From positions 150,001 to 182,000 of the forward strand of contig NC_003551.1 in assembly GCF_000007185.1 (NCBI RefSeq): a stretch of DNA of 32,000 nt. Direction: 5' to 3'. The translations under genes were made by a program, and so were the position numbers. This document shows, one piece after another, positions 6,089-32,000 of this stretch (positions are counted from its first letter, which is position 1; each line of letters opens with the position of its first letter). This stretch comes from Methanopyrus kandleri AV19. GTDB taxonomy: Archaea > JAADCQ01 > Methanopyri > Methanopyrales > Methanopyraceae. The notes beneath the pieces are model-generated. The model searched no databases. It saw only the letters and a list, made by a program, of their open reading frames with translations, and was not told the origin of the DNA.

Positions 6089-8347
6089 TTGCCGCGCGAG
6101 AAGTGTCCTAAATGTGACGGGAAGGGGAAGATCCCAGTCGGAGAGACCGAATGTCCCAGATGCGGTGGTACCGGGTTCGTGGGCGACGTGGACATCAGCG
6201 AGCACTTCAAAGGAGCGGCTCAGCACGCCGTCGAAGGGTACGATCTCGCCAGCTCACGTGACGTCCCCTGTCCGAAGTGTCAGGGTAAAGGTGTGATAAC
6301 GGTCTACGAGGAATGCGACAGGTGCGGTGGTACCGGTTACATCGTGAAGTGTCGGGAGTGCGGGAAGGAACTGGATCCAGACGTTGAAGAGGACCTATGC
6401 GAGGAGTGCCGGAAGAAGATCAAACAGATTCGCAAGGAAAAGCTGCCAAAGGTGAAGGTCCTCTCGCCGGCGTGCGGGTACGAGGACGTCGAAGAGGGCG
6501 AGCTGTACAAGGGCAAGGTTAGCCGTGTCGAGAAGTACGGAGTTTTCATCGAATTAAACGACAGAACCCTCGGTCTGCTACACCGTCGCGATATGGGCGA
6601 CAAGGAGCCTCAGGACTTCTCGATCGGTGACGAGGTGGTGGTGAAGGTCACGGACGTGCGACCGGAGGACGGCGAGATCGACTTCACGATCGAAGGTATC
6701 GACCCACGGCCCGATCGATACCGCGAGGAGGTCGTGGAGAAGGAGCTGAAGCGCGTACTCGTACACGACATCGACGAATCGAAGATCGGCGAGACCGTCC
6801 TGATTAAAGGTAAGATCATCCACGTCCAGCAGACACCCGGACCGACCGTATTCACGCTACGAGACGAGAGCGGTAGCATCTGGATGGCAGCCTTCGAGGG
6901 GCCGGGGATCAGGGCCTATCCGGACATCGAGGCGGGTGATTACGTCCGGGTGATCGGCGAGGTCACCACGCACGACGGCCAGCTCCAGGTCGAGATCCTC
7001 GACATGGAGAAGCTCGTGGGGACGGAGAAAGTCGAGATCAAACGAGCCATCGACGAGGCGCTCGACCGGGAAGCCGAGCCGCCCGAGGATCTAAAACCCA
7101 TGGTAGACAGCGAGATCATCGAGCGTCTGTGGCCGCGGATGCGCGAGGTGGCGAAGGAGATCAAGCGGGCCGTACTCGAAGGTCGGCCCGTCCTGATCCG
7201 GCACCACGCGGACGCCGACGGTATCTCGGGCGGAGTAGCGCTGGAGGAGGCGATACTCCCGATCTTGAGGGAGAACAACCCGGACCCGGAGGCAGAGTAC
7301 CACTTCTACAAGCGGTTCCCGAACAAGGCGCCGATATACACCCTCGAGGACGCCTCACGGGACCTGAACCACGCCCTAGAGGACGTCCACAGGTACGGCC
7401 ATCAGGTACCACTCCTGGTACTCTTGGACATCGGGTGTACCGAGGAGGACGTACCCGCCATCGAGGAAATGAAGGCCTACGGCGTCGACGTCCTGGTCAT
7501 CGACCACCACTATCCGGGCGAAGCCGTGGGAGAGAACCCGGAGGACGGACTGAAGGAGTTCCCGATCGACGAACACGTGAAGGTACACGTGAACCCCTAC
7601 GCGGCGGGTGGCGACGGCAAGAACATCCCCGCAGGTGTCCTGGCCGTAGAGATCGCCCGACTCATCAACCCGGAGGTGGAGGACAGGATTAAGCACCTCC
7701 CGGCGGTCGCGTGTCTGGGGGACCACGCCGAGTCTCCCGAGGCGGAGCAGTACCTCGAGATCGCCGAGGAGGCCGGTTTCGACAGGAAGTGGCTGAGGAA
7801 GATCGCGGACAGCGTCGACTTCCAGGCGTTCCAGCTGCGTCACACTCCGGGGAGGCACCTGATGAACGACGTTCTCGGCACTACAGGGGACGAACACCGA
7901 CACCGACGGCTGGTAGAGAACCTCTACAAGCAGCATAAGATCGCCTGCGAGCGGCAGCTGGAAGCCGCGCTGAAGGGAGTCAAGGAGTACGAGACGGACG
8001 GTGTGAAGGTGGTCACCTTAGACGTGGAGAAGCACGCCCGCAAGTTCGAGTACCCCGGCCCGGGCAAGACGTGCGGGCTCGTCCACGACCTGAAGGTCGA
8101 GGAAGAAGGCGACGATGCAAAGGTAGTGACCATCGCGTACGGACCGGACTTCGCGGTGATCAGGGCCACGGAGAACCTGGGGATAAACCTCAACGATATC
8201 GTATCGGAACTGGAGGAAGAGATGCCAGAGGCCGCGGTGGAGGGTGGAGGTCACGAGACCGCCGGCTCGATATCGTTCGTGGAGGCACATCGGAACAAGG
8301 TCCTCAAGGCGCTGGTCGAGAAGATCCTGAGGGACGCCACCTCTTAA
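6089..8347 (+). CDS. Archaea-specific RecJ-like DHH phosphoesterase/nuclease with N-terminal DnaJ-type zinc finger, S1 and OB domains
   Basis: Four CxxCxGxG repeats (CPKCDGKG, CPRCGGTG, CPKCQGKG, CDRCGGTG). S1-like KGKVSRVEKYGVFIEL and an OB fold. DHH motifs RHHADADGISG and VIDHHYP, plus DHHA1 GGGHETAGS. Confidence 0.8.
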   Translation: MPREKCPKCDGKGKIPVGETECPRCGGTGFVGDVDISEHFKGAAQHAVEGYDLASSRDVPCPKCQGKGVITVYEECDRCGGTGYIVKCRECGKELDPDVEEDLCEECRKKIKQIRKEKLPKVKVLSPACGYEDVEEGELYKGKVSRVEKYGVFIELNDRTLGLLHRRDMGDKEPQDFSIGDEVVVKVTDVRPEDGEIDFTIEGIDPRPDRYREEVVEKELKRVLVHDIDESKIGETVLIKGKIIHVQQTPGPTVFTLRDESGSIWMAAFEGPGIRAYPDIEAGDYVRVIGEVTTHDGQLQVEILDMEKLVGTEKVEIKRAIDEALDREAEPPEDLKPMVDSEIIERLWPRMREVAKEIKRAVLEGRPVLIRHHADADGISGGVALEEAILPILRENNPDPEAEYHFYKRFPNKAPIYTLEDASRDLNHALEDVHRYGHQVPLLVLLDIGCTEEDVPAIEEMKAYGVDVLVIDHHYPGEAVGENPEDGLKEFPIDEHVKVHVNPYAAGGDGKNIPAGVLAVEIARLINPEVEDRIKHLPAVACLGDHAESPEAEQYLEIAEEAGFDRKWLRKIADSVDFQAFQLRHTPGRHLMNDVLGTTGDEHRHRRLVENLYKQHKIACERQLEAALKGVKEYETDGVKVVTLDVEKHARKFEYPGPGKTCGLVHDLKVEEEGDDAKVVTIAYGPDFAVIRATENLGINLNDIVSELEEEMPEAAVEGGGHETAGSISFVEAHRNKVLKALVEKILRDATS

Positions 8348-8832
8348 CCTACACGCACGCATTTCACGATAAGCCGCTCGCGCGCCGTGGAAAGAGGCGT
8401 GCAAGTGACCAACCACAGCTCGTCCTTATTCGACGCATCCGGGTCGATGACGTAATCCGGAGATACTACCACTTTATCGTACACCACGTACACGTACTTG
8501 GACCCGAACCAGTACACTATGACCTTATCACCGCGCTTTAACTCGTCGAGGTGTAGGAAGGGAGATCCGAAAAGAGTACGATGTCCGTAGAACACCGTGA
8601 TTCCCTTTTTACCAGGCGGAGGCGTCATGATCTCGTAATACACACCGTAGTCCGGCGAGGTGGTGTTGATCCGCTCGCGGAGACCTAACTTCGGGATGAC
8701 CAACTCGCAGTCGGGTATCGATACGGATTCATGGTACATGAAGTAAGCGACTTCCTTGGCCGCGAGATACCCCAAGTACGTCGTGGATGGAGCGAGCAGG
8801 AGAATTCCCGGAATCAGGTACCGTAACCTCAC
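8344..8832 (-). CDS. Sortase-family transpeptidase homologue (N-terminal membrane anchor)
   Basis: 162 aa. TM segment LIPGILLLAPSTTYLGYLAA. LVIPKLGL; catalytic-His context VFYGHRTLFGSPFLHLDELKRGDKV; catalytic-Cys context LWLVTCTP; downstream Arg (RERLIV). The order and spacing match the sortase H-C-R triad. Confidence 0.75.
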   Translation of the reverse strand: MRLRYLIPGILLLAPSTTYLGYLAAKEVAYFMYHESVSIPDCELVIPKLGLRERINTTSPDYGVYYEIMTPPPGKKGITVFYGHRTLFGSPFLHLDELKRGDKVIVYWFGSKYVYVVYDKVVVSPDYVIDPDASNKDELWLVTCTPLSTARERLIVKCVRVG

Positions 8833-12730: not shown

Positions 12731-13357
12731 GTGGGAGTTCGCGAAGTCTTAAGACGCTTGGCGGCCGCTCTGAGGTCCGGACCCGAGGAGCTGGACATCG
12801 GAATATACGGGGCTCCCAACGTGGGCAAAACGACGCTGGCGAATCGCATCGCCCAGGATTGGGAGGCGGAGGAGTTCGGTCAAGTGTCGGAGGTCCCTCA
12901 CGAGACTCGGGAATCGGTGCGTCGAGAGGTAGCGATAGAGGTGGGATCAACAACGGTTAAATTCAACATCGTGGACACACCCGGCATCGCCACGAAGGTA
13001 GACTACCGTAAGTTCTTGGAGTACGGGCTTGACGTGCAAGAGGCGAAACAGAGGGCCAAAGAGGCTACTCGAGGGGTGGTGGAAGCGATCAAGCTCCTAA
13101 AGGACATCGACGGGGCGCTGGTCGTCATCGACTCCACCAAGGATCCCCTGAGTCAAGTCAACGTAACCCTGATAGGCAACCTGGAGGCCAACGACGTCCC
13201 GTTCTTGGTCGTTGCGAACAAAATAGACTTGGAGGAAGCCGACCCTGAAGCTGTCCGGAAAGCGTTCTCGGAATACCCCGTAGTCGCCGTCTCCGCGAAG
13301 ACCGGGGAGAACATGGCTAAGCTGTACGAAGCCATGGTTAGGGAGTTTACGAGTTGA
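12731..13357 (+). CDS. Small P-loop GTPase (Era/Ras-like, archaeal type)
   Basis: G1 GAPNVGKTT, G3 DTPG, G4 NKID, G5 SAK. Confidence 0.85.
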   Translation: MGVREVLRRLAAALRSGPEELDIGIYGAPNVGKTTLANRIAQDWEAEEFGQVSEVPHETRESVRREVAIEVGSTTVKFNIVDTPGIATKVDYRKFLEYGLDVQEAKQRAKEATRGVVEAIKLLKDIDGALVVIDSTKDPLSQVNVTLIGNLEANDVPFLVVANKIDLEEADPEAVRKAFSEYPVVAVSAKTGENMAKLYEAMVREFTS

Positions 13358-13716
13358 CGGACGGCGAGGTTAAAGTGGAGGTGCTAGCTAAATCGGCTTT
13401 AGAGAGGATGTCGACGGAGGAGGTCGTGGAGTACGTCATCGAAAAAACTAGGGGCGGGTCCGTGATCGTACTTGAGGGACAGTTAGACCCGGAGACGCTA
13501 ACACAGATCATCCGTGAGACTATGGAAAATGTGGATCTGGAAGAGTTCACAGGTGTGGACATCTACGTGGTACCACCGAAGGCGAAGACGGATAAAGGAC
13601 TTTTCGACAGACTGCTGGGACGCCAGTCCGAGGAGGGTATGACCGTGATCTCACCCGCGGACGTTCTGAAGGATATGAAAAAGGGGAAGGATTTCATCAC
13701 GCTAAAACTCGGATGA
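13354..13716 (+). CDS. DUF2073-like conserved archaeal protein
   Basis: VIVLEGQLDPETLTQIIRETMENVDLEEFTGVDI matches my memory of the LE.GL.PEEE..LIE.TM..ID...F.GIE signature of the archaeal family that follows this GTPase. 4-nt overlap with the GTPase gene. Confidence 0.6.
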   Translation: MTDGEVKVEVLAKSALERMSTEEVVEYVIEKTRGGSVIVLEGQLDPETLTQIIRETMENVDLEEFTGVDIYVVPPKAKTDKGLFDRLLGRQSEEGMTVISPADVLKDMKKGKDFITLKLG

Positions 13717-13729
13717 CGGGAGATCTGCT

Positions 13730-13984
13730 ATGCCTCATATATGTATAAGATGCGGCGAAGTGTACGACAAGGTTACAAAAGAACTCATACGTCGGGGTTG
13801 CTTAAAATGTGGGTGTAGACTGTTTAAGCGGGTATCTGAGGATGACGGAGATAACCCAGCAACGATCGTTGTCGAACGTGATGGCGTTTACACAATTAAC
13901 ATTGAAAACATTGACGATGTTGTAACTGTATATAAATCAGGTAGATTCTTCATAGTGCTTCCGGAGCAAAAGTACGGGGATTAG
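13730..13984 (+). CDS. Zn-ribbon protein (DUF2072-like)
   Basis: MPHICIRCGEVYDKVTKELIRRGCLKCGCRLF: a CxxC...CxxC ribbon with the family-typical MPH.C..CG N-terminus. Confidence 0.6.
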   Translation: MPHICIRCGEVYDKVTKELIRRGCLKCGCRLFKRVSEDDGDNPATIVVERDGVYTINIENIDDVVTVYKSGRFFIVLPEQKYGD

Positions 13985-13988
13985 GCAA

Positions 13989-14609
13989 TTGAAGACCACA
14001 GAAAGACCTGAACTGAGAGTTAAAATACTTAGAGCAGCTGCAGTATCTCACGAAGACATCAGTAAGGAAATGGATTCATACTGTGCAATACTAGGGGATC
14101 CAGAAAGCATTGATGATATCGTATATGAAGTGATGCGTCTATCTAATTTTGAAATTATCGACAACAGTATAGTGAAAACTAGACACGGAATAGTAGTTTG
14201 GAGGTACGGAGTTGTACTAATAAAATCGACGCCTGAGATTACTTCATTAATAAAGCGAATAGTGAGTGATACGAACCTCATGTCTGTAGTATTTAAGGCC
14301 AAGGACGGGAACTTTCTGATAGCAGGACCGGACATTGTCTTGAAAAAAATTTTGAGTAGTGCTAGAGTTAAAATGAAGGTTAAAGTGACCAAGCGTACCA
14401 GAGGTATAGCTTTCGTTGAAACTTCCACCGTGGTATTCGATGCGATGCCTGGATTCTTAAAAGACATAATTAACACGCTTCTCGGCATAGAAGAGGAAGT
14501 ATTCAGTATTTTGGTCCTAGACGTTGAAGATCCTGAAAAGTTTAAGAAGATCATCGATAAAGGACCGAATGTATATTGGAGGAGAATTGAAGAAGATAAA
14601 GAGACGTAG
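13989..14609 (+). CDS. Hypothetical protein, AT-rich gene (possibly two Roadblock/LC7-like halves; speculative)
   Basis: 206-aa ORF with a TTG start, packed tightly between the Zn-ribbon gene and mreB. No motif recognised with confidence. Confidence 0.5.
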   Translation: MKTTERPELRVKILRAAAVSHEDISKEMDSYCAILGDPESIDDIVYEVMRLSNFEIIDNSIVKTRHGIVVWRYGVVLIKSTPEITSLIKRIVSDTNLMSVVFKAKDGNFLIAGPDIVLKKILSSARVKMKVKVTKRTRGIAFVETSTVVFDAMPGFLKDIINTLLGIEEEVFSILVLDVEDPEKFKKIIDKGPNVYWRRIEEDKET

Positions 14610-14624: not shown

Positions 14625-15806
14625 TTGCCATTGTGGAAGAGAAAGAAAAAAGAGGAGACAAAGCAAGAGAAAAAGATTGAAGAAGAGAAGAAGGAGAATA
14701 ATGAAAAGAAAGCTTCTAAACTACCAACATCTATTCAAGAGGCACTTAGTGAAGAGCCCGAAATAGAGATAGATGAAGGGCTCGAAGCACTTGGTATAGA
14801 TTTAGGCACCATGAACACAGTGGTTGCGAGGCCGGCCGAGGAGGAGTTTTTGGTGAAGCAATTTCCGTCTGTAGTAGCCGTGAAGAAGGGTACGAATCGA
14901 GTTTTGGCTATAGGTGAAGAAGCCCGCCGAATGCTCGGACGGACTCCCGAGGACATCGTGGCCGTGCGTCCAATGCGTCACGGTGTGATCGAGTCCTTAG
15001 AGTACGCCAAGTTCATAGTTCAGTACGCGATCGAGCTCGGATCGGACAACAGTCCCGAAGAAATCGAACGCGTCGCCGTAGGAGTGCCGGGTGATGCATC
15101 CGAGGTGGAGAGAGAAGCCATCGAAGAGGCGACCTCGGACGTCGGAATGGATAAGGACAACGTGATCGTGATCAACGAAGCCCTAGCGGCCGCCATCGGA
15201 GCCGGACTGCCGATCGCGGAGCCGGACGGTACTATGGTGATCGACATCGGAGCGGGTTCCACCGATATCGCCGTTATATCGTTGGGTGGAATCACCGACC
15301 AGGAGACCATGAGGGTCGGTGGGGACAACATCGACCAGAACATCGTCGATCTCGTGGAGGAGGAGTTCGGGGTGCGGATCGGCATCCACGAAGCCGAGCG
15401 GGCGAAAGTGGAGGTAGGTAAAGTCTTCACTGAGACCGAGGACATCGAGGACAAGGAGATCGAAGTGGTAGGCAAGGACATCGAAACGAACAAGCCCAAG
15501 GAGATCACTATCGACTCCGAGCTGGTGGCTAAAGCCGCGGAGCCCGTCGTCCAAGAGATCATCAGGGCCATCGAGAGTATCCTCGACAGGTTGCCGCCGG
15601 AGTTGGTCCCGGGCGTGTACGAGAACACCGTGCTCGTCGGAGGTACCTCACTAATGCGAGGCCTCCGAGCTAGGATCGAAGAGGAAACCGACGTACCGGC
15701 CGAGCTCGTAGACGATCCCCTGACGGTAGTAGCGAAGGGTGCCGCGATCGTAGCCGCGGAGCCGAAGACCTTGGAGCCCGAGATAAGACTCAAGGCTCTG
15801 AAGTGA
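14625..15806 (+). CDS. mreB: Actin-like rod-shape protein MreB with ~54-aa K/E-rich N-terminal extension
   Basis: GIDLGTMNTVV (phosphate 1), VAVGVPG, INEALAAAIGAG, MVIDIGAGSTDIAVISLGG (phosphate 2), GGDNIDQ, VLVGGTSLMRGL. The only in-frame starts upstream of the core are TTG 14625 and 14631. Confidence 0.9.
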   Translation: MPLWKRKKKEETKQEKKIEEEKKENNEKKASKLPTSIQEALSEEPEIEIDEGLEALGIDLGTMNTVVARPAEEEFLVKQFPSVVAVKKGTNRVLAIGEEARRMLGRTPEDIVAVRPMRHGVIESLEYAKFIVQYAIELGSDNSPEEIERVAVGVPGDASEVEREAIEEATSDVGMDKDNVIVINEALAAAIGAGLPIAEPDGTMVIDIGAGSTDIAVISLGGITDQETMRVGGDNIDQNIVDLVEEEFGVRIGIHEAERAKVEVGKVFTETEDIEDKEIEVVGKDIETNKPKEITIDSELVAKAAEPVVQEIIRAIESILDRLPPELVPGVYENTVLVGGTSLMRGLRARIEEETDVPAELVDDPLTVVAKGAAIVAAEPKTLEPEIRLKALK

Positions 15807-20933: not shown

Positions 20934-21410
20934 ATGGTTCGGAGAACCTCTGAAGAGATTTCAGAACGCATGGAAGACTACCTGGAAGCCCTATACCTAC
21001 TTTCGAGACGCGGCTCCGGCCGACATGTGAGGATATCGGAACTCAGCGAGTACCTGGAAGTGTCCAAACCGACGGCGTTGGAGATGATCAGAAAGTTAGC
21101 AGATCGCGGCTTAGTAGAGTACGAACGAGGTCTGGTGAAACTCACGGAGAAAGGTCGAGAGATCGGTAAGGAGGTGTGGGACAGGCACCGGGAGATAGCG
21201 TCATTCCTCCGGTTCTTGGGTGTAGATCCGAAGATAGCGGAACGTGACGCATGCGCTATAGAGCACTCGTTACACCCGCAGTCTTTCCGGAGACTACGAA
21301 AACTGTTCCACCTCCTGAAGGAGGCGACCGGGGAACCGACCGTGCGCGAGATCCTAGATAAAGTGCGGGGGGAAGAGGGAGATTCAGACGGAGTTCGACA
21401 TCGATCGTAA
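20934..21410 (+). CDS. DtxR/MntR/IdeR-family metal-dependent transcriptional repressor
   Basis: MEDYLEALYLL, wHTH ISELSEYLEVSKPTALEMIRKLADRGLVEY, and metal-site region DRHREIASFLRFLGVDP...ACAIEHSL. Confidence 0.85.
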   Translation: MVRRTSEEISERMEDYLEALYLLSRRGSGRHVRISELSEYLEVSKPTALEMIRKLADRGLVEYERGLVKLTEKGREIGKEVWDRHREIASFLRFLGVDPKIAERDACAIEHSLHPQSFRRLRKLFHLLKEATGEPTVREILDKVRGEEGDSDGVRHRS

Positions 21411-22272: not shown

Positions 22273-22301
22273 GGATGCATAGAGGTTGGGCTGATGGGAG
22301 C

Positions 22302-22377
22302 AGGGCCGTGGGGTAGCGGTCTATCCTGCGGGGCTTTGGACCCCGCGACCCCGGTTCAAATCCGGGCGGCCCTACCA
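22302..22377 (+). tRNA. tRNA-Gln (anticodon UUG), CCA encoded
   Basis: Manual fold. Acceptor AGGGCCG/CGGCCCU (A1-U72, as in archaeal tRNA-Gln). Anticodon stem CGGGG/CCCCG with loop CUUUGGA. T arm CCCGG-UUCAAAU-CCGGG. Discriminator A plus CCA. Confidence 0.85.
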
Positions 22378-22420
22378 CTCCGAATCGTTTTGAGAACCAT
22401 AACAATAAGGGGACGGCTCT

Positions 22421-22690
22421 TTGGACGCGCTGCTGAAGATCTGCATACTGAATGCGCTGGCGGTGGTAGCTTTCGCCGTACTCGTCTGGGCGGCTTTTAG
22501 GTACGCACTTCCCTCCTGGTTCATCCTGGCGATTATCGTCCCAGGGGTTCTCGGGTCAGCGTGCGTTGACTACGTCATGATCAGCGTCGGTGTGTACGAT
22601 GGCCCGTGGGAAACGGCATTCGCGAGCGTTGTGTACGCGGTGGCATGGTGGACAGGAAGACCCGGACCGTCCGGCCCGGGGTCCCGTTAG
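22421..22690 (+). CDS. Small hydrophobic protein (about 3 TM), hypothetical
   Basis: 89 aa. TTG start with AAGGGGA 6 nt upstream and GC-rich third positions. The last ~6 codons are complementary to the vhuU SECIS hairpin. Confidence 0.45.
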   Translation: MDALLKICILNALAVVAFAVLVWAAFRYALPSWFILAIIVPGVLGSACVDYVMISVGVYDGPWETAFASVVYAVAWWTGRPGPSGPGSR

Positions 22691-22704
22691 GGTTCCCCCG
22701 GGCC
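22673..22704 (-). promoter_or_regulatory. Archaeal-type SECIS element in the vhuU 3' UTR
   Basis: The minus-strand RNA is GGCCCGGGG-GAA-CCC-UAAC-GGG-A-CCCCGGGCC. This gives a 9-bp GC lower helix, a GAA/A asymmetric internal loop, a 3-bp upper helix and a 4-nt apical loop. It starts 19 nt after the vhuU stop. Confidence 0.8.
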
Positions 22705-22722
22705 ATCATCCGGCCGGGGCGT

Positions 22723-22851
22723 TCAATCCTCATCCTTCCGCTCTATCCGGAACTTCACGCGGTCCAACACGTGGGCGGCGCACGACAGTCAGATGTCGTA
22801 GCTCCTGATCACCATTTCCAGGTAGTTCAATACATCCCGCTTCTCGGCCAT
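22723..22851 (-). CDS. vhuU: Selenocysteine-containing [NiFe] hydrogenase large-subunit C-terminal peptide VhuU (TGA = Sec at 22789-22791)
   Basis: Hand translation: MAEKRDVLNYLEMVIRSYDI-U-LSCAAHVLDRVKFRIERKDED. It supplies the D-x-(C/U)-x-x-C-x-x-H nickel-ligand motif that the truncated VhuA lacks. ATG lies 13 nt after the vhuA stop with a GGGGAG SD. It is absent from the ORF track (short, and has an internal TGA). Confidence 0.85.
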
Positions 22852-22864
22852 CGAGCGGCTCCCC

Positions 22865-24169
22865 CTAAGCTAGTTCCACGATTTCGTCCTCTAACTTTTT
22901 CGCGGTCTCCTTCAGGGCGAGCTCGATCGCGGGGACGTTGTGAGTGGTAGCGACTATCAGGTTGGCCTCCTTCACGCGACCCTCGTCGTCGGTCACGTAG
23001 TGGTGGATGAGCGTACCACGCGGCGCCTCGACGATGCCGACTCCTTCGCCCGCCTTGGGCTCGTAGTCCTCCTTGCACTCGTCCTCCTCGGTGATCACAT
23101 CGTCCTCGAGCAGCATCTTGGCCTCCTCACACGCGGCCACGAGTTCCACGAGCCGGGCCCAGTTGATGGTGAGCGAGTAGTTCACGCACTCCCCGAACTC
23201 GTCGACGTACTCCTCGTAGAGCTCCTGGGCGCGCTCGGTCTTCATCTCCGAGCAGACGTTGAGCCGTGCACCCGGTCCTACCCTGTAGATACCGTCCGGG
23301 TACCCGACGTCCTTCAGGTACGGGTGTTTGACGTAGGAGTACTCTATGGTGCGCTCCGCGATCACGTCCTGGTATTCCTGCGGCTCGAAGCGCGTGACCT
23401 CCTCCCCGTTCGGATCCACTACCTTCACCTCGCCGTCGTAGAACTCGTGCTTGTCACCGTCTGAGACGAGACCCATGTGGTAAGTCTCGATGTTCCCTAG
23501 AGTCTCGAGCAGATCGATGTCGTGCTTCTCCCGGTACTCCTCCAGCGTCTCTTTGATCGCCTCGATGCCGACCTTGGCACCCTCGTACGCCATCTCGATC
23601 ATCTCTTCGGCGCGGTTGAGCAGGTCATCGCGTGACTCCGGGTCGACCGGGGAGGAGACGCCGCCCGGGATCCCCGTCACGGGGTGTATGGCCTTACCTC
23701 CGGTAGCCTCTACGATGTCCTGACCGTAGCGACGCAGTTCGATCGCGATCTTTCCGACTTCCGGGTCGTCCTTGACTATCTTCACCACGTTACGCTGGAG
23801 CGGGTCCGCATCCGGTCCAACCACGTAGTCGGGCGCCGCCAGGAAGTAGAAGTGAAGCGCGTGGCTGTGGATCATGTTCCCGATGTGCATCAGCCACCGG
23901 ATCTTGTGCCCGCCTTCGGGCGGCTCGGCGTCGAAGCACGCGTCCACGGCCTTGCAGGCCGCTAAATGGTGGGCAGTCTGGCAGATACCGCAGATCCTGG
24001 ATACGATGTAGGGAACGTCCTCCGCGGGGCGGCCTTGGACGAACTTTTCGAACCCTCGGACTGCGAGGACTGCGAACTTGACGTCGGTCACCTCACCGTC
24101 CTCGACCTCGATGATGACTTCACCGTGTCCCTCTACCCTGGTCAGGGGGTGAATCTTGATCTCGGCCAC
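22865..24169 (-). CDS. vhuA: F420-non-reducing (Mvh/Vhu-type) [NiFe] hydrogenase large subunit, C-terminally truncated form
   Basis: LTRVEGHG and RICGICQTAHHLAA (N-terminal Ni ligands). It ends at ...ATTHNVPAIELALKE..., before the DPCxxCxxH motif. Confidence 0.9.
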   Translation of the reverse strand: MAEIKIHPLTRVEGHGEVIIEVEDGEVTDVKFAVLAVRGFEKFVQGRPAEDVPYIVSRICGICQTAHHLAACKAVDACFDAEPPEGGHKIRWLMHIGNMIHSHALHFYFLAAPDYVVGPDADPLQRNVVKIVKDDPEVGKIAIELRRYGQDIVEATGGKAIHPVTGIPGGVSSPVDPESRDDLLNRAEEMIEMAYEGAKVGIEAIKETLEEYREKHDIDLLETLGNIETYHMGLVSDGDKHEFYDGEVKVVDPNGEEVTRFEPQEYQDVIAERTIEYSYVKHPYLKDVGYPDGIYRVGPGARLNVCSEMKTERAQELYEEYVDEFGECVNYSLTINWARLVELVAACEEAKMLLEDDVITEEDECKEDYEPKAGEGVGIVEAPRGTLIHHYVTDDEGRVKEANLIVATTHNVPAIELALKETAKKLEDEIVELA

Positions 24170-24172
24170 CCG

Positions 24173-25090
24173 TTACTCCCCCTTCGAGCCGAAGATCACG
24201 TCACGATGACCCTTCAGTAGAGACGCGGCCATGGAGAACATGTAGAGCTTCCCAGGTAGGTCGACGAGTCCCTCCAGGATCTCCTCGACGTCGACGTCGG
24301 TCTCGAAGGACACCGAGGCGATCGCATCGAGGAACGCCGCACCCTGATCCAGTGCCTGCTTCGTCGGTCCGTTACACCCACGGCACGATAGTCCTCGGGA
24401 CGGACAGGCCGCTCCACATCCGGCGACCGTGGCCGGTCCCATGCACGGGTAGCCCTGTTCGAGCAGGCACTTGTCCGGGTCGGGTCGGCCCTGACCGGTG
24501 CGGAACTTGATCTCCTCGATCGGGATGTCCTCCTTCTCGCGGGGACATTCCTCGCACAGGTTCGTCGTCGGGAGTTCGGGCTCCCGGTCCTCGAGGATGG
24601 CGGTGATGACCTCAGCGATGCTCTCCGGCTTGGGAGGGCAGCCCGGCAGCATGTAGTCGACGTCGATTACCTCGGGCAGCGGCCGCACGTAGCCGAAGAG
24701 CTCCGGAACGACCTCTTCCGGAGTCTCGCCTTCGTCGTCGGTGGTCGGGGTCTCCTTGAAGACCCACTCGAGGATGTCGTCCAGTTGGTACAGGTTGGCC
24801 AGCCCGTGGACTCCACCGTAGCAGGCGCATGTCCCCACGGCGACGACGATGTCGGCGGCCTCACGGAGTTCTTCCGCGACCTCGAGATCCTCCTCGTTTC
24901 GGATGCTTCCCTCGATCACCGCTACGTTCACGTGCTCTGGGATCTCCTTCTGGTCGACTAGTACGTAGCAGTACTCGATCTCGATGGCGTCCTCCAGGAG
25001 ATCGAGTAACTTCTCGTGGAGATCGAGCAGTGACACGTGACACCCGACACAGGAGGACAGTTGAGCCGTCGCAATCGTCGCCTTACCCAT
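24173..25090 (-). CDS. vhuG: F420-non-reducing [NiFe] hydrogenase small subunit
   Basis: SSCVGCHVSLLD, GTCACYGG, LPGCPP, and a distal Cys cluster CEECP...CMGPATVAGCGAACPSRGLSCRGC. Confidence 0.9.
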   Translation of the reverse strand: MGKATIATAQLSSCVGCHVSLLDLHEKLLDLLEDAIEIEYCYVLVDQKEIPEHVNVAVIEGSIRNEEDLEVAEELREAADIVVAVGTCACYGGVHGLANLYQLDDILEWVFKETPTTDDEGETPEEVVPELFGYVRPLPEVIDVDYMLPGCPPKPESIAEVITAILEDREPELPTTNLCEECPREKEDIPIEEIKFRTGQGRPDPDKCLLEQGYPCMGPATVAGCGAACPSRGLSCRGCNGPTKQALDQGAAFLDAIASVSFETDVDVEEILEGLVDLPGKLYMFSMAASLLKGHRDVIFGSKGE

Positions 25091-25196
25091 CCCGCGCTCC
25101 CCCGGCGGTGGCCCGCGCGTGATTTAATACCGGATTGGGATTGAAGGATCGAATGCTACCCAACAGCTTCGACCGGGGGGTCCCGGAATAGCCCAT

Positions 25197-25787
25197 ATTC
25201 ACCTACCTGATGGACTGATACCGTTATGGTGGTGTGCCGTATTTTACGCTATGGCGGCCATACCGGTAGGTTTAGGGGCGCTGAGAATCCGGTCCGAGGG
25301 TCGTAAAACCATTCTGGTCGGATTGTTGGCGGGTCTCTCGTTCGTGTTCATGCAGGTGCCGATAGGCCATGCTCACGTGAACTTAACGGGACCGATCGGA
25401 ATTCTACTGGGGCCTTGGAGTTCCGCCGTGGCTGTTTTCATCGTCAACTTGGCGTGTGCCCTAATGGGACACGGAGGAATAACCATCGTCGGATTGAACA
25501 CCCTGATCAACTGGGGAGAAGCTGCCGGCGTGTGGGCACTCTACAGGCTTCTCAGGGAGAGGCTGGATTACGGTGCAGCCGCGGGGATCGCCACGTTCTC
25601 CGTCCTAGCCACATCGTCGGTGATTCCATCGTTCGTCATGGCTTGGGTTATCAACAAACCGGTACTTCCGTTCCTTCTCACACTGACCACGGTTTGGATA
25701 GTCACGGCGATCATCGAAGCCGTAATTACGGCATCGATGGTTAAGGCTCTCGCCCAAATGAAACCGGACTGGGTGAGAGATCTGTGA
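25197..25787 (+). CDS. cbiM: CbiM/NikM-type substrate-capture component of an ECF Ni/Co transporter (start codon uncertain)
   Basis: HLPDGLIPLWWCAVFYA..., later HAHVNLTGPIGILLGPW and GHGGITIVGLN. The ORF track starts at ATG 25251 and so omits the conserved metal-binding N-terminus. I place the start at ATT 25197 (alternative ATA 25188). Confidence 0.75.
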   Translation: MHLPDGLIPLWWCAVFYAMAAIPVGLGALRIRSEGRKTILVGLLAGLSFVFMQVPIGHAHVNLTGPIGILLGPWSSAVAVFIVNLACALMGHGGITIVGLNTLINWGEAAGVWALYRLLRERLDYGAAAGIATFSVLATSSVIPSFVMAWVINKPVLPFLLTLTTVWIVTAIIEAVITASMVKALAQMKPDWVRDL

Positions 25788-26476
25788 GGTTCACCGAAGC
25801 ACTGGAGTGGTCGCTGACGGCTGAGACCGTGCTCCACCGTATACACCCATGGTCGAAGTTAGTCGGGCTGATGACCACGATCTTCGCCTCGATGTTACTG
25901 TACGATCCCGAGAGCATCGCCATCCTGTCGATACCGTACCTAATCGGGTGCATCTTAGCCCGCGTTCCCGTCCGGATCCTAGCGCGGTTGTCGATACCGC
26001 CGATGGCGTTCTTGGGCGCGGTCCTGCTCCTGATGTTGCCCTCGGGCGTCCCGGGCCGCGAGGTGTTGCTGTACGCCGTTCGGGGCGCGACCGATCTCTT
26101 AGCCGTGCTCGTGACGACGCTGACGACGCCCTTCAACGCGCTGTGGTCGGCCCTCGTCGTGGTGTTCCCACCCACGCTGGCGGAGACCGGTCTCATCTTC
26201 CATCGCTCGGTGTACCGGGCGTTCGAAGAGTTGGAGGGAACGTTGAACGCGATCCGGATCCGGGGATGGAGGCTCAGGTCGATCAACGTTCTGGGATCCG
26301 TTATCGCGACTCTCTTGATTCGAAGCCACCGGAGCGCGGAACTCGTGCAGGTAAGCGTGGAGGTACGCGGGGCGACGGGTAGGGTGCGACCGTTGAAAAG
26401 ATTCGAGTTCACGCGGATAGACTTCGGATGGTTGACCATGGTGTTTTGCTCCGTGGCGTTATCGGGGGTGGTCTGA
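25784..26476 (+). CDS. cbiQ: CbiQ/EcfT transmembrane component of the ECF transporter
   Basis: Multi-TM protein with HPWSKL..., and AIRIRGWR in the conserved coupling-helix region. 4-nt overlap with cbiM. Confidence 0.8.
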   Translation: MRFTEALEWSLTAETVLHRIHPWSKLVGLMTTIFASMLLYDPESIAILSIPYLIGCILARVPVRILARLSIPPMAFLGAVLLLMLPSGVPGREVLLYAVRGATDLLAVLVTTLTTPFNALWSALVVVFPPTLAETGLIFHRSVYRAFEELEGTLNAIRIRGWRLRSINVLGSVIATLLIRSHRSAELVQVSVEVRGATGRVRPLKRFEFTRIDFGWLTMVFCSVALSGVV

Positions 26477-26477
26477 A

Positions 26478-27311
26478 ATCGGGTATGCCGTTAAGATCAA
26501 ATGCTTGACTCACGAGTATCCCGACGGCACTTGTGCTGTGTGCGGGTTGAGTCTACGAGTGAAAGAAGGTGAGTCCGTGGTTGTACTCGGACCGAACGGT
26601 TCTGGGAAGACCACTTTACTGCACCACATTCTCGGTCTGTTGACCCCCACCAAGGGACACATCCGGGTCCTAGGTCACGACTTGCCGGACGGAGTACGGG
26701 AAGTTCGGAAGCGTATAGGCGTGGTCTTCCAGGACGTCGACGACCAGCTCATCATGCCGACCGTATTGGAGGATGTGGCCTTCGGGCTAGTAAACCGCGG
26801 CATGCCGCGAGAAGAGGCGTTCGAGCGAGCCCGTGAGATCCTGGAACGGTTAGGCATTGAAGATCTGGAGGATCGGCCGCCGCAGTTCCTCAGCGGCGGA
26901 CAGAAGAGGTTGGTAGCCTTGGCGGGGGCCGTAGCTCCGGAGCCCGACCTCCTGATTCTCGACGAGCCCACCTCAGGACTCGACTTCCGCGCCACCAGAC
27001 TGTTCGTGCGACTCATCAGGGAGCTCAAGGAAGAGCTGGGGTTCACGATGATACTGACGACGTTCGACGTGGACATCGCGGCGGCGTTGGCGGAGCGCGT
27101 CGTGGTGATCCGAGAGGGGAAGACCGTGGCCGAAGGGTCTCCGGAAGACATCCTCACGGACGTCGACCTGATAAGAGAATCCGGGCTGAAACCCCCGGAG
27201 CACGTGGAACTACTCCGAAGGCTAGGAATCGAGAATCCACCGCTCGACATAAGCGAGGCGGAGGAGCTTCTGGTGGCCATGCTGGGGGAGGAGAGCCGTG
27301 GAAACCCGTAA
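26478..27311 (+). CDS. cbiO: CbiO/EcfA ATPase component (start codon uncertain)
   Basis: Walker A GPNGSGKTT, Q-loop, signature LSGGQKR, Walker B LLILDEPTSGLD. The ORF track starts at TTG 26505, which removes the first beta-strand (AVKIKCLTHEYPDG). I start at ATC 26478. Confidence 0.85.
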   Translation: MGYAVKIKCLTHEYPDGTCAVCGLSLRVKEGESVVVLGPNGSGKTTLLHHILGLLTPTKGHIRVLGHDLPDGVREVRKRIGVVFQDVDDQLIMPTVLEDVAFGLVNRGMPREEAFERAREILERLGIEDLEDRPPQFLSGGQKRLVALAGAVAPEPDLLILDEPTSGLDFRATRLFVRLIRELKEELGFTMILTTFDVDIAAALAERVVVIREGKTVAEGSPEDILTDVDLIRESGLKPPEHVELLRRLGIENPPLDISEAEELLVAMLGEESRGNP

Positions 27312-30141: not shown

Positions 30142-31521
30142 TTGAACGTTGCATTCGAAGTTAAGGATCGGGACGTGGCGGGCAGGCTCGGGCGTCTCGA
30201 GGTCAATGGCAGGAGACTGAAGACGCCCGCCCTGTTGCCCGTGGTTAACCCCAACAAACCCACCTTGGATCCACGGGAGATCTCCAAGCTAGGTTTCGAC
30301 GGGGTGATCACGAACGCCTACATTATCCGGAAGCACGAGCACCTACGCGAGCAGGCGCTCGAGGAAGGCGTCCATGGGCTCCTTGGGTTCGACGGGTTCG
30401 TGATGACGGATTCCGGCTCGTTCCAGCTGGCGGAGTACGGCGATGTCGAAGTATCCAACGAAGAGATCGTGCGGTTCCAAGCGAAGATCGGGTCAGATGT
30501 GGGCACTATCCTCGACGTGCCGACGCCACCCGACGCTCCGAGGTCCAGGGTCGAACGTGACCTCGAGACCACACTGAAAAGGGCTCGCGAAGCGGTGGAG
30601 CTCGACGAACACCCTCCGTTAGCTCTCACCGTCCAAGGGTCCACGTACGAGGACCTTCGGAGACTGTGCGCAGAGAAACTGGCGGAGCTGCCGGCGGCGG
30701 TGTATCCCGTGGGAGGCGTCGTACCGCTGCTGGAGGAGTACCGGTTCGTAGACGTGGTACGAGTGGTCCTAGCCGCGAAGTCCTCGCTGCCTCCACATCG
30801 CCCTGTACACCTCTTCGGTTGCGGGCATCCGCTGGCGATTCCACTCGCCGTCGCGATGGGGTGCGATCTGTTCGACTCCGCATCTTACGCTATCTACGCC
30901 AGATCGGACCGGTACATGTCCATCCTAGGTACTCTGAAGTTAGAGGAGCTGGAGACCTTCCCGTGTTCCTGCCCAGCGTGTACACGACACGATCCGGACG
31001 ACGTCCGCGAGATGGAGCCGCGAGAACGTACCCGAGTGTTGGCTACGCATAACCTCTACGAGTTGCGCAGGGTGATAGAGACCACGAGGCAGGCTATAGT
31101 GTCGGGAGAGCTATGGGAGTTGGCCGAATCGGTATGCCGAGCACATCCGCGTGCTTGGGCAGGGATGGTGGAGTTAGCGCGACGTGGAGGAGAACTGGAA
31201 CGATGGTGTCCGGCCGTAAAGCGTAGCGTGTTCGTATGCGATGAGGTCTCGAAGGGACGTCCCGAGCTACGTCTCTACCGTCGACGGCTCCGGGACAGGT
31301 TCGGCGAGCTCTCGGGGCGTAAAGTGGTGAAAGGGATAAGCAGACCCTACGCAGAGATCGTCGAGTGGTTAGAACCATGGGAGCTGGCGTTCGCCGACGA
31401 GTGGTTAGGAGTGGTACCCGGAGAACTGTCATGGTCGTACCCTTGCCACTGCCTCGTGGAGCCTAGCGGGGATGATGAGGGTGAGGACCGACGGAGGGGT
31501 GAAGAGGGTCGCAGGCGCTGA
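30142..31521 (+). CDS. tgtA: Archaeosine tRNA-guanine transglycosylase (ArcTGT), catalytic + C1 region only (no PUA)
   Basis: FEVKDRDVAGRLGRLEVNGRRLKTPALLPVVNP, MTDSGSFQ, GTILDVPTPPDAP, QGSTYEDLR, PVGGVVPLLEEYRF, HLFGCGHP, DLFDSASY, and Zn site FPCSCPAC..H. Confidence 0.85.
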   Translation: MNVAFEVKDRDVAGRLGRLEVNGRRLKTPALLPVVNPNKPTLDPREISKLGFDGVITNAYIIRKHEHLREQALEEGVHGLLGFDGFVMTDSGSFQLAEYGDVEVSNEEIVRFQAKIGSDVGTILDVPTPPDAPRSRVERDLETTLKRAREAVELDEHPPLALTVQGSTYEDLRRLCAEKLAELPAAVYPVGGVVPLLEEYRFVDVVRVVLAAKSSLPPHRPVHLFGCGHPLAIPLAVAMGCDLFDSASYAIYARSDRYMSILGTLKLEELETFPCSCPACTRHDPDDVREMEPRERTRVLATHNLYELRRVIETTRQAIVSGELWELAESVCRAHPRAWAGMVELARRGGELERWCPAVKRSVFVCDEVSKGRPELRLYRRRLRDRFGELSGRKVVKGISRPYAEIVEWLEPWELAFADEWLGVVPGELSWSYPCHCLVEPSGDDEGEDRRRGEEGRRR

Positions 31522-32000
31522 GTTCGTCCTTTATAAGGAAGGGGGATCGGAGTTTTACGTGCCGGACCCGGAACGTTACTCTCAGGATGGCCTTCCCACC
31601 CGTGATGCACCGGTAGCGTTCGCACCGAACGCCGCCGTGAACAGGTCCGTACTCGTCCTGTTCCACCGAGTACGTCCTGTGAGGAGGTTCGGAGACGTGT
31701 TCTGTGGTGTCGGCGCCAGGGCCATCCGCCTTCATATTGAAGCCGAGGTGGAGTGGTCCGTACTATCCGATGTGAACCCCATTGCGTGTCAAATCGCAAT
31801 GATCAACGTCCGGAGACTCGGACTACCATCGGAGGTTAGGTGTATGGATGCCGTCGCCGCACTTTCTACCTTCGACTTCGATGCCGTCGACTTGGACGTG
31901 TTCGGGACCCCGATACCGTTCGCCCAAGCCGCGTTTCGGTGCGTACGCGACGGTTACGTGCACGTCACCGCCACAGACCTCGAATCGCTGTATACCCCGG
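31472..32000 (+). CDS. Divergent Trm1-family methyltransferase paralogue (5' part, runs off the window)
   Basis: My translation from ATG 31472: MMRVRTDGGVKRVAGAEFVLYKEG...FAPNAAVNRS...DVFCGVGARAIR...DLDVFGTPIPF...ATDL. It is collinear with the Trm1 motifs (FYNP, DPLAGVGARGIR, DIDPFGPPVPF, ATD). It overlaps the tgtA 3' end by 50 nt. Confidence 0.7.
   Translation, partial: MMRVRTDGGVKRVAGAEFVLYKEGGSEFYVPDPERYSQDGLPTRDAPVAFAPNAAVNRSVLVLFHRVRPVRRFGDVFCGVGARAIRLHIEAEVEWSVLSDVNPIACQIAMINVRRLGLPSEVRCMDAVAALSTFDFDAVDLDVFGTPIPFAQAAFRCVRDGYVHVTATDLESLYTP

Follow-up and report, generated by a model that had tools for sequence, protein, structure and literature searches.

Where does a [NiFe]-hydrogenase keep its C-terminal nickel ligands when its large subunit stops short of them? 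This question is raised by a locus of Methanopyrus kandleri AV19 that lies within a stretch of 32,000 nucleotides (contig NC_003551.1, positions 150,001 to 182,000), which we call the window and whose own numbering we use throughout. On the minus strand, the window sequence and its translation place the vhuG, vhuA and vhuU open reading frames (ORFs) in tandem, and the vhuA product terminates in ...EIVELA*, without the C-terminal DPCxxCxxH motif. Our answer, to which we assign a probability of about 0.95, is that the locus is the vhuG-vhuA-vhuU operon of a selenium-containing F420-non-reducing [NiFeSe] hydrogenase, in which the UGA codon of vhuU is recoded to selenocysteine (Sec) via a 3′ selenocysteine insertion sequence (SECIS). 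The features that define the split large subunit are the following:

22865..24169, minus strand: vhuA, large subunit truncated ahead of the C-terminal Ni-ligand motif (434 aa, Pfam NiFeSe_Hases)
22723..22851, minus strand: vhuU, 42 codons plus stop, ATG at 22851 (translation; NCBIfam VhuU equivalog; orthologous small ORFs in 24 loci)
22789..22791, minus strand: in-frame UGA, codon 21, predicted to be read as Sec (aligns with the first Cys of the full-length MvhA motif DPCLSCxxH)
22771..22797, minus strand: Ni-ligand motif D-I-Sec-L-S-C-A-A-H, codons 19-27 (aligns with YDPCLSCATH of 5odc_F)
22726..22770, minus strand: 15-residue C-terminal tail past His27, VLDRVKFRIERKDED (presence from translation)

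The vhuU reading frame and its orthologues

The stop codon of vhuA and the ATG of vhuU are separated by a 13-nt spacer that contains a ribosome-binding-like run (GGGGGAG). The coding frame of vhuU (22851..22726, minus strand) reads MAEKRDVLNYLEMVIRSYDI-TGA-LSCAAHVLDRVKFRIERKDED and closes with a stop codon at 22725..22723; standard ORF finders recognise just 20 codons of it. The NCBIfam profile NF041786.2 ('F420-non-reducing hydrogenase selenoprotein subunit VhuU') has a curated equivalog cut-off of 70 bits, which the peptide passes whether its Sec position is written as Cys (80.9 bits) or as X (74.1 bits). The match was full-length, with VhuU residues 1-42 on profile positions 1-45 of 45.

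For the orthologue comparison, we used 80 related genomic loci from a genome-collection scan (L numbers below). A truncated VhuA was present in 24 of them (four Methanopyri metagenome-assembled genomes (MAGs), 14 Methanococcales and six Asgard loci), and every one of the 24 had a small downstream ORF with a TGA at the position homologous to the first Cys of DPCxxCxxH. A full-length MvhA with the first Cys of DPCLSCxxH was found in 55 loci, including a Methanopyri Cys paralogue (L022). Regarding length, VhuA homologues of 414-435 aa occurred only in Methanopyrus and Methanococcales, and those elsewhere had 470-487 aa; the 434-aa VhuA of the window was 100% identical to a Methanopyrus kandleri protein (P0001).

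The codons after the TGA vary synonymously among orthologues (GCC/GCG, TCG/TCA/TCC, TGC/TGT, CAC/CAT), and the encoded S-C-A-A-H is invariant. Therefore, the frame must be taken as translated, and its part downstream of the UGA is under purifying selection.

Solved structures fit the same arrangement. Joined end to end, VhuA and VhuU are colinear with the full-length MvhA (5odc_F, residues 3-451). The nearest solved chain is 9sfi_g, a truncated VhuA of 418 aa, and the same PDB entry (9sfi) contains a 27-residue VhuU as a separate chain (9sfi_M). The tail past His27 would presumably be removed by a hydrogenase maturation endopeptidase, because VhuU of Methanococcus voltae is processed (Sorgenfrei et al., as cited in PMC2933860) and the chain in 9sfi_M ends after 27 residues.

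We also weighed a VhuA-VhuU fusion produced through read-through, and rejected it because the two ORFs do not share a frame and the two proteins are separate chains in 9sfi.

The original prediction, which left the minus strand of the feature unstated, had described a large subunit ending before its C-terminal Ni-ligand motif and, 13 nt on, a 42-codon ORF whose UGA restores D-x-(Sec)-x-x-C-x-x-H. Translation, the 24 split loci and the 55 MvhA loci bear out both statements, and the comparison with Methanococcales VhuU that it proposed agrees, with the NF041786.2 cut-off passed and the TGA position shared in the 14 Methanococcales loci. It was also right that the class is not new, VhuU being a curated family and a long-established archaeal selenoprotein (PMC2933860). 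Its description of the gene as uncalled is partly correct. It applies to ORF finders, to the context-line annotation of Weinberg et al. 2010 and to a 15-billion-protein collection, where none of the X-substituted, Cys-substituted or 20-aa truncated forms of VhuU was found, though records written with U could still exist. It does not apply to the supplement of Huang et al. 2024, where the Sec-protein 'frhA' alignment lists the VhuU peptide ('>Methanopyrus_kandleri_AV19_U ... MAEKRD...').

Thus, the gene, the hairpin downstream of it, the use of selenium and the SECIS base with its eukaryote-like core are already published, and vhuU and its SECIS bring in themselves nothing biologically new. The locus is a textbook functional gene missed by ORF callers owing to a recoded stop, and its value is mainly for annotation: a scan of raw sequence can recover such genes.

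The hairpin downstream of vhuU

The second question is what would signal the recoding. Two nested features lie 3′ of vhuU:

22672..22705, minus strand: predicted SECIS core, with a 10-bp lower helix, GAA (22695..22693)/A (22682) internal loop, CCC/GGG upper helix and UAAC apical loop (sequence, folding, pattern search)
22661..22718, minus strand: extended stem-loop, in which the C-stem reaches 8 bp, with a single bulged U (minimum-free-energy and centroid structure)

The hairpin itself (22704..22673, minus strand) reads GGCCCGGGG/GAA/CCC-UAAC-GGG/A/CCCCGGGCC. It begins 18 nt 3′ of the vhuU stop, that is, in the 3′ untranslated region (UTR), and its GAA/A loop is located about 93 nt downstream of the UGA. 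Folding of the 3′ UTR gave one dominant structure (22718..22661, -43.1 kcal/mol, z = -2.49), in which the element continues below the hairpin with an asymmetric, kink-turn-like internal loop and then a further 8-bp stem.

The hallmarks of euryarchaeal SECIS elements are a 3′-UTR site, a GAA_A internal loop topped by three G-C pairs in a row, and a short apical loop (PMC11227280, PMC13188914), and the M. kandleri hairpin presents all the features given in these two sources. A stringent SECIS pattern (GAA, three G-C pairs, 3-8 nt loop, opposed A and lower helix of at least 8 bp) matched once in the whole window, at this hairpin; by chance, a mean of 0.003 matches per window is expected (300 dinucleotide-preserving shuffles). 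For eukaryotic-type elements, no Rfam SECIS family was among the matches up to E = 5 anywhere in the window.

The hairpin is conserved. It lies 0-25 nt past vhuU in 17/17 Methanopyri and Methanococcales orthologues retrieved. Its lower helix is GGCCCGGGG in the Methanopyri elements, whereas those of Methanococcales have (A)GCUCACAACC or UCCUACAACC. RNAalifold, run on 16 sequences (the window element and 15 of the 17 orthologue loci), gave 14 consensus pairs, ten of them with double-sided compensatory changes. From its architecture and covariation, the hairpin is predicted to be a euryarchaeal SECIS (eaSECIS) that would direct UGA recoding in vivo. A reporter system for UGA recoding exists in M. 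maripaludis, and with regard to the parts of the element, Peiter et al. 2025 reported that SECIS function requires the GAA adenines, whereas the fruA SECIS still works with its basal stem cut to 3 bp, and called the basal stem generally 'not conserved' (PMC11881835).

These results retain the archaeal SECIS architecture that had been proposed from the letters alone, with all its features, the single pattern match and a hit to the Rfam family RF01737. The proposal counted a lack of conservation of the hairpin after vhuU orthologues among its refuting conditions and named SECIS pattern and covariance-model searches as checks; the hairpin is kept in all 17 with 10/14 pairs covarying, and the searches returned the unique window match and RF01737 at 55.8 bits. 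Two details need correction. The hairpin does lie downstream of the vhuU stop, at 18 nt and not 19, and the structured element around it is larger than described, extending over 22718..22661 with the kink-turn-like loop and the further stem.

Convergent with vhuU, we observed a gene for an 89-aa hypothetical membrane protein (AAM01394.1, 22421..22690, plus strand). Its TAG stop (22688..22690) falls inside the apical loop of the opposite-strand SECIS, so the two transcripts would overlap by at least 30 nt.

Rfam family RF01737 as a SECIS subclass

RF01737 covers 22713..22667 (minus strand) with 55.8 bits (gathering score 40; E = 3.5e-11; full model). The window element is identical to seed sequence 1 of this family, NC_003551.1/172713-172667 (Weinberg et al. 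2010), and a 447-nt flank also matches. Rfam files the family, 'flpD RNA', as cis-regulatory and unexplained, with a name that comes from the gene downstream in Methanococcus. What do its members have in common?

In Methanococcales, RF01737 matches lie about 1.5 kb upstream of vhuA; by ORF mapping of L006, this is the interval that separates the stop codon of hdrA from the start codon of vhuD. The order in this locus is hdrA, SECIS#1 (flpD-type), vhuD (with two TGAs), SECIS#2, vhuG, vhuA, vhuU, SECIS#3 and vhuB. In Methanopyri, the matches are 3′ of vhuU. RF01737-type elements were located at L006:1436-1482, L007:1446-1491, L008:1419-1466, L013:753-800, L014:1129-1176 and L015:1300-1345. The sole context common to the members is a position immediately 3′ of a Sec-encoding ORF (hdrA in Methanococcales, vhuU in Methanopyri), and the invariant core of the family (GAA, three G-C pairs and an opposed A) is the SECIS consensus. 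Because of this shared context and core, RF01737 is an archaeal SECIS subclass, comprising the hdrA-vhuD intergenic SECIS of Methanococcales and the vhuU SECIS of Methanopyri. No link between the flpD RNA motif and SECIS was found in the literature searched. RF01737 is thus a mislabelled Rfam family and should be re-annotated, which is a useful database correction.

The related loci also contain other SECIS-like hairpins. The Methanococcales vhuD SECIS presents GGGAUGA on the 5′ side, AAC or GAC then CGCCCC on the 3′ side, and a variant core of G.A then A.A (L005:256-289, L006:1999-2032, L008:2010-2043, L010:1999-2032, L014:1859-1889, L016:2012-2048 and L017:2024-2060). Its outer stem has only 2-3 bp, with the vhuG start codon about 10 nt or less beyond, and it fits the description given by Mariotti 2016.

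In Jordarchaeia (Asgard), a hairpin of the euryarchaeal type comes immediately after vhuU; it reads CCGGUGUCU-GAAA-CCC-loop-GGG-A-AGACAUCGG and has three upper-stem G-C pairs (L032:4483-4520, L068:4482-4520 and L078:4482-4520). According to Huang 2024, Asgard eaSECIS-like structures are nearly always without these three pairs.

Alternative explanations

Could the hairpin serve another purpose? Its great stability (-43 kcal/mol) and GC-rich stem between convergent genes, with the stop codon of the opposite-strand gene within the apical loop, would also suit a transcription terminator or 3′-end stabiliser common to vhuU and MK0180, whose likeness to a SECIS would be a coincidence. We consider this very improbable, since no T-run lies 3′ of the hairpin on either strand, a terminator scan of 22300..25300 was empty, the GAA/A loop and the three G-C pairs stay invariant though the stems differ completely between species, and the equivalent vhuU hairpin of Methanococcales is inside an operon, upstream of vhuB. 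A secondary stabilising role may exist alongside. Still less credible is what the Rfam name implies, that the hairpin is an independent cis-regulator of a downstream hydrogenase gene (flpD/vhuD) and has nothing to do with Sec. The 'Cis-reg' type of a family matched at 55.8 bits speaks for it, and so do the position of the motif about 45 nt 5′ of the vhuD start codon in Methanococcus and the main text of Weinberg 2010, which is silent on SECIS and selenocysteine. However, the summary table of the same paper puts a '?' on cis-regulation. Moreover, neither in M. kandleri nor in three Methanopyri MAGs is there a flpD/vhuD gene downstream, the element standing after vhuU and leading into a convergent gene, and the Sec-encoding ORF on the 5′ side and the SECIS consensus in the core are what all the members share.

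The remaining alternative concerns the codon and not the hairpin: the UGA would be a real stop, and the 42-codon ORF the relic of a decayed hydrogenase that lost its C-terminus. It would explain why ORF finders see 20 codons alone and why the X-, Cys-substituted and 20-aa forms are absent from the protein collection, a look-up that does not extend to the Sec form. We give it next to no credence in view of a split and a TGA position that recur unchanged in 24 loci of three archaeal lineages, the synonymous substitutions after the TGA with an invariant SCAAH, a score above the VhuU equivalog cut-off and the separate VhuU chain in a solved structure.

Some points nevertheless weigh against a selenium-containing VhuGAU hydrogenase with a recoded UGA. 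VhuA and VhuG both score under the NCBIfam curated cut-offs, which are tuned on Methanococcales: the top match of the vhuA product is VhuA NF041785.2 with 559.5 bits, and that of the vhuG product is VhuG NF045875.1 with 321.5 bits against a cut-off of 450. All five Methanopyri sequences have D-I-Sec and not the usual D-P-Cys/Sec. The incorporation of selenium in VhuU is something we infer from established knowledge, and the recoding mechanism is itself incomplete, with the archaeal SECIS-binding factor still unidentified (PMC11881835). Finally, no Sec machinery gene or tRNA-Sec was found in the 32-kb window, and because of this the machinery part relies on the literature. Methanopyrus has the Sec trait and is among the classical Sec-using lineages (PMC4989117), and the use of selenoproteins by M. 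kandleri has been known since the 1997 study on selenium-dependent formylmethanofuran dehydrogenase, as cited in PMC2933860 and PMC11097638.

Proposed mechanism and likeness to known systems

Established knowledge on such enzymes suggests how the parts would work together. The C-terminal metal-binding strand, which is missing from VhuA (434 aa), would be supplied by a separately translated VhuU. During vhuU translation, UGA codon 21 would be recoded to Sec with the 3′-UTR SECIS as the signal, acting via the archaeal Sec-specific elongation factor (aSelB) and Sec-tRNA(Sec) through the SECIS-binding factor. Sec21 and Cys24 would be the nickel ligands, and the 15 residues past His27 would be cut off as the enzyme matures, so that VhuA keeps a bound peptide of about 27 residues.

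The closest known system is VhuU of M. voltae and Methanocaldococcus jannaschii (NF041786; 9sfi chain M). Both have the small ORF right after a truncated vhuA, a single UGA at the first Ni-ligand Cys, the x-x-C-x-x-H spacing, a short tail past His and a 3′-UTR SECIS. They differ in the motif, D-I-Sec-L-S-C in Methanopyri and D-P-Sec-Y-S-C in Methanococcales, and in the operon: unlike in Methanococcales, it consists of vhuGAU only in M. kandleri, without adjacent hdrA, vhuD or vhuB. The vhuU SECIS of M. kandleri has a basal AUGA/GA module, whereas that of Methanococcales does not.

The unsplit [NiFeSe] large subunits of Desulfovibrio vulgaris Hildenborough (5jsh) and Desulfomicrobium baculatum (1cc1), both among the structure matches, share the use of Sec for the C-terminal Ni-ligand Cys. 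In these bacteria, Sec is in one contiguous subunit and the bacterial SECIS is in the coding region, whereas M. kandleri would have it in a separate gene product with a 3′-UTR SECIS.

As for the hairpin, it shares with the canonical eaSECIS (Wilting 1997, Rother 2001, Peiter 2025) the 3′-UTR site, GAA_A, three G-C pairs, short apical loop and lower stem of about 10 bp. Below its lower helix, the M. kandleri element adds to this plan a 5+2 internal loop, which is conserved and kink-turn-like, and one more stem.

A kink-turn-like module at the base of the element

This addition raises the last question, whether the base of the element is a protein-binding kink-turn. Its parts are:

22667..22713, minus strand: RF01737 match, that is, the predicted SECIS plus the basal kink-turn-like module (Rfam match; kink-turn statistics over 17 members)
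22713..22711 (CCG) paired with 22669..22667 (CGG), minus strand: C-stem of the module
22710..22708, minus strand: bulge GAU of the module
22707..22706 (GA) opposite 22671..22670 (GA), minus strand: tandem G.A/A.G of the module
U22705.G22672: 3b.3n of the module

We parsed 17 flpD-family members manually, segment by segment, taking the elements of M. kandleri AV19, M. maripaludis and M. jannaschii from the Weinberg seed alignment. The base of the subclass is 5′-NNN/NNU/GA/N ... N/GA/NNN-3′, which in the window reads CCG/GAU/GA/U ... G/GA/CGG. The G.A and A.G pairs are invariant and the third bulge nucleotide (L3) is U in 17/17 members. The three C-stem pairs are formed in 17/17, 16/17 and 17/17 members with 5, 2 and 3 pair types (variants CCG/CGG, CCA/UGG, UCA/UGA, ACA/UGU and CAA/UUG). 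In every member, 10 bp (3b.3n included) separate the tandem G.A from the GAA loop, whether the element follows vhuU in Methanopyri or hdrA in Methanococcales. As exceptions, the Methanothermococcus hdrA SECIS elements of L011 and L012 are without the module and L001-L003 have a 1-nt insertion; the vhuU SECIS elements of Methanococcales are without AUGA/GA as well. A search for the M. kandleri HdrA locus with the L006 HdrA fragment gave no M. kandleri protein in the best 120 matches.

A kink-turn is defined by a bulge of 3 nt and then tandem G:A pairs, with a Watson-Crick C-helix and an NC-helix on the flanks; the 5′-UTR kink-turns of archaeal L7Ae have a GAU bulge too, and G at 3n is reported to favour ion-induced folding (PMC6298567). 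At the level of sequence, the module has the bulge, the tandem G.A/A.G and the flanking helices. That it is a genuine L7Ae-type kink-turn, set at a fixed 10 bp from the GAA/A loop, is a tentative proposal that we hold to be rather unlikely. If true, L7Ae or a protein of its family would take part in SECIS recognition for a subset of archaeal selenoprotein mRNAs, in parallel to SBP2 and L30 on eukaryotic SECIS elements. The module thus offers a cheap and directly testable lead toward the archaeal SECIS-binding factor that Peiter et al. 2025 describe as still unidentified.

Parts of this base have been described before. Mariotti et al. 2016 gave the VhuD SECIS an AUGA plus a GAC/AAC motif and an extra stem. 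Huang et al. 2024 found [A/G]UGA_[G/A]A in every hdrA and frhD SECIS of both orders, and AUGA_GA or GUGA_[G/A]A in all Methanopyrus 'frhA' (VhuU included) and selD SECIS elements. The kink-turn geometry, the C-stem covariation, the invariant 10-bp spacing and the equivalence with the Rfam flpD family are undocumented in the literature searched.

The base also resembles the core of eukaryotic and Asgard 'eSECIS' elements in their type II form. Shared are the 5′ AUGA and 3′ GA flanking a helix of about 10 bp, and above the helix the unpaired adenines and a mini-stem of 3 bp with its small loop. The spacing from AUGA to AA is 11 nt in the M. kandleri element and 10-13 nt in eukaryotic SECIS elements, where the AUGA_GA kink-turn is bound by SBP2. 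The difference is that in methanogens the essential determinant is the GAA/A loop (PMC11881835), and no SBP2 homologue is known in archaea (PMC11881835, PMC4989117).

Operon start and genomic neighbourhood

Upstream of vhuA, the operon begins with the following features:

24173..25090, minus strand: vhuG, [NiFe]-hydrogenase small subunit, first gene of the operon (305-aa ORF; Pfam Oxidored_q6, E = 1.5e-34)
25122..25129, minus strand: putative archaeal TATA box, TATTAAAT, 32-39 nt 5′ of the vhuG ATG (read from the letters)

Divergent from vhuG are genes for CbiM, CbiQ and an ABC ATPase, which make up an ECF-type Co/Ni transporter (25251..27311, plus strand), and a DtxR-type iron-dependent repressor is encoded at 20934..21410. 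It is plausible that CbiM, CbiQ, the ATPase and DtxR represent a metal-supply neighbourhood for the NiFe enzyme.

On the opposite strand, about 290 nt past the SECIS, there is a tRNA-Gln(UUG) gene (22302..22377, plus strand). The same tRNA adjoins vhuU in the Methanopyri MAGs L001, L003 and L004.

Other observations in the window

A C/D-box small RNA-like sequence, GGGGAUGAUGA...GUGAAGA...CUGAG, is found at 31468..31523 (plus strand). It matches Rfam sR1 with 27.3 bits (E = 0.003), below gathering, as well as three other archaeal C/D families, and it overlaps the 3′ end of a TGT-family ORF (30142..31521).

A small GTPase ORF and then a homologue of OapB ('origin-associated protein'; Pfam PF09846, E = 8e-35) occupy 12731..13716 (plus strand). 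We inspected 13300..14200, including the intergenic 13716..13989, for a replication origin beside oapB, and found only short repeats at chance level; to our knowledge, the replication origin of M. kandleri is poorly defined.

Finally, the window encodes a sortase-domain protein (8344..8832, minus strand; Pfam PF04203, E = 1e-23) and an MreB/Mbl actin homologue (14625..15806, plus strand; E = 2e-100), both of which are, as far as we know, uncommon in archaea.

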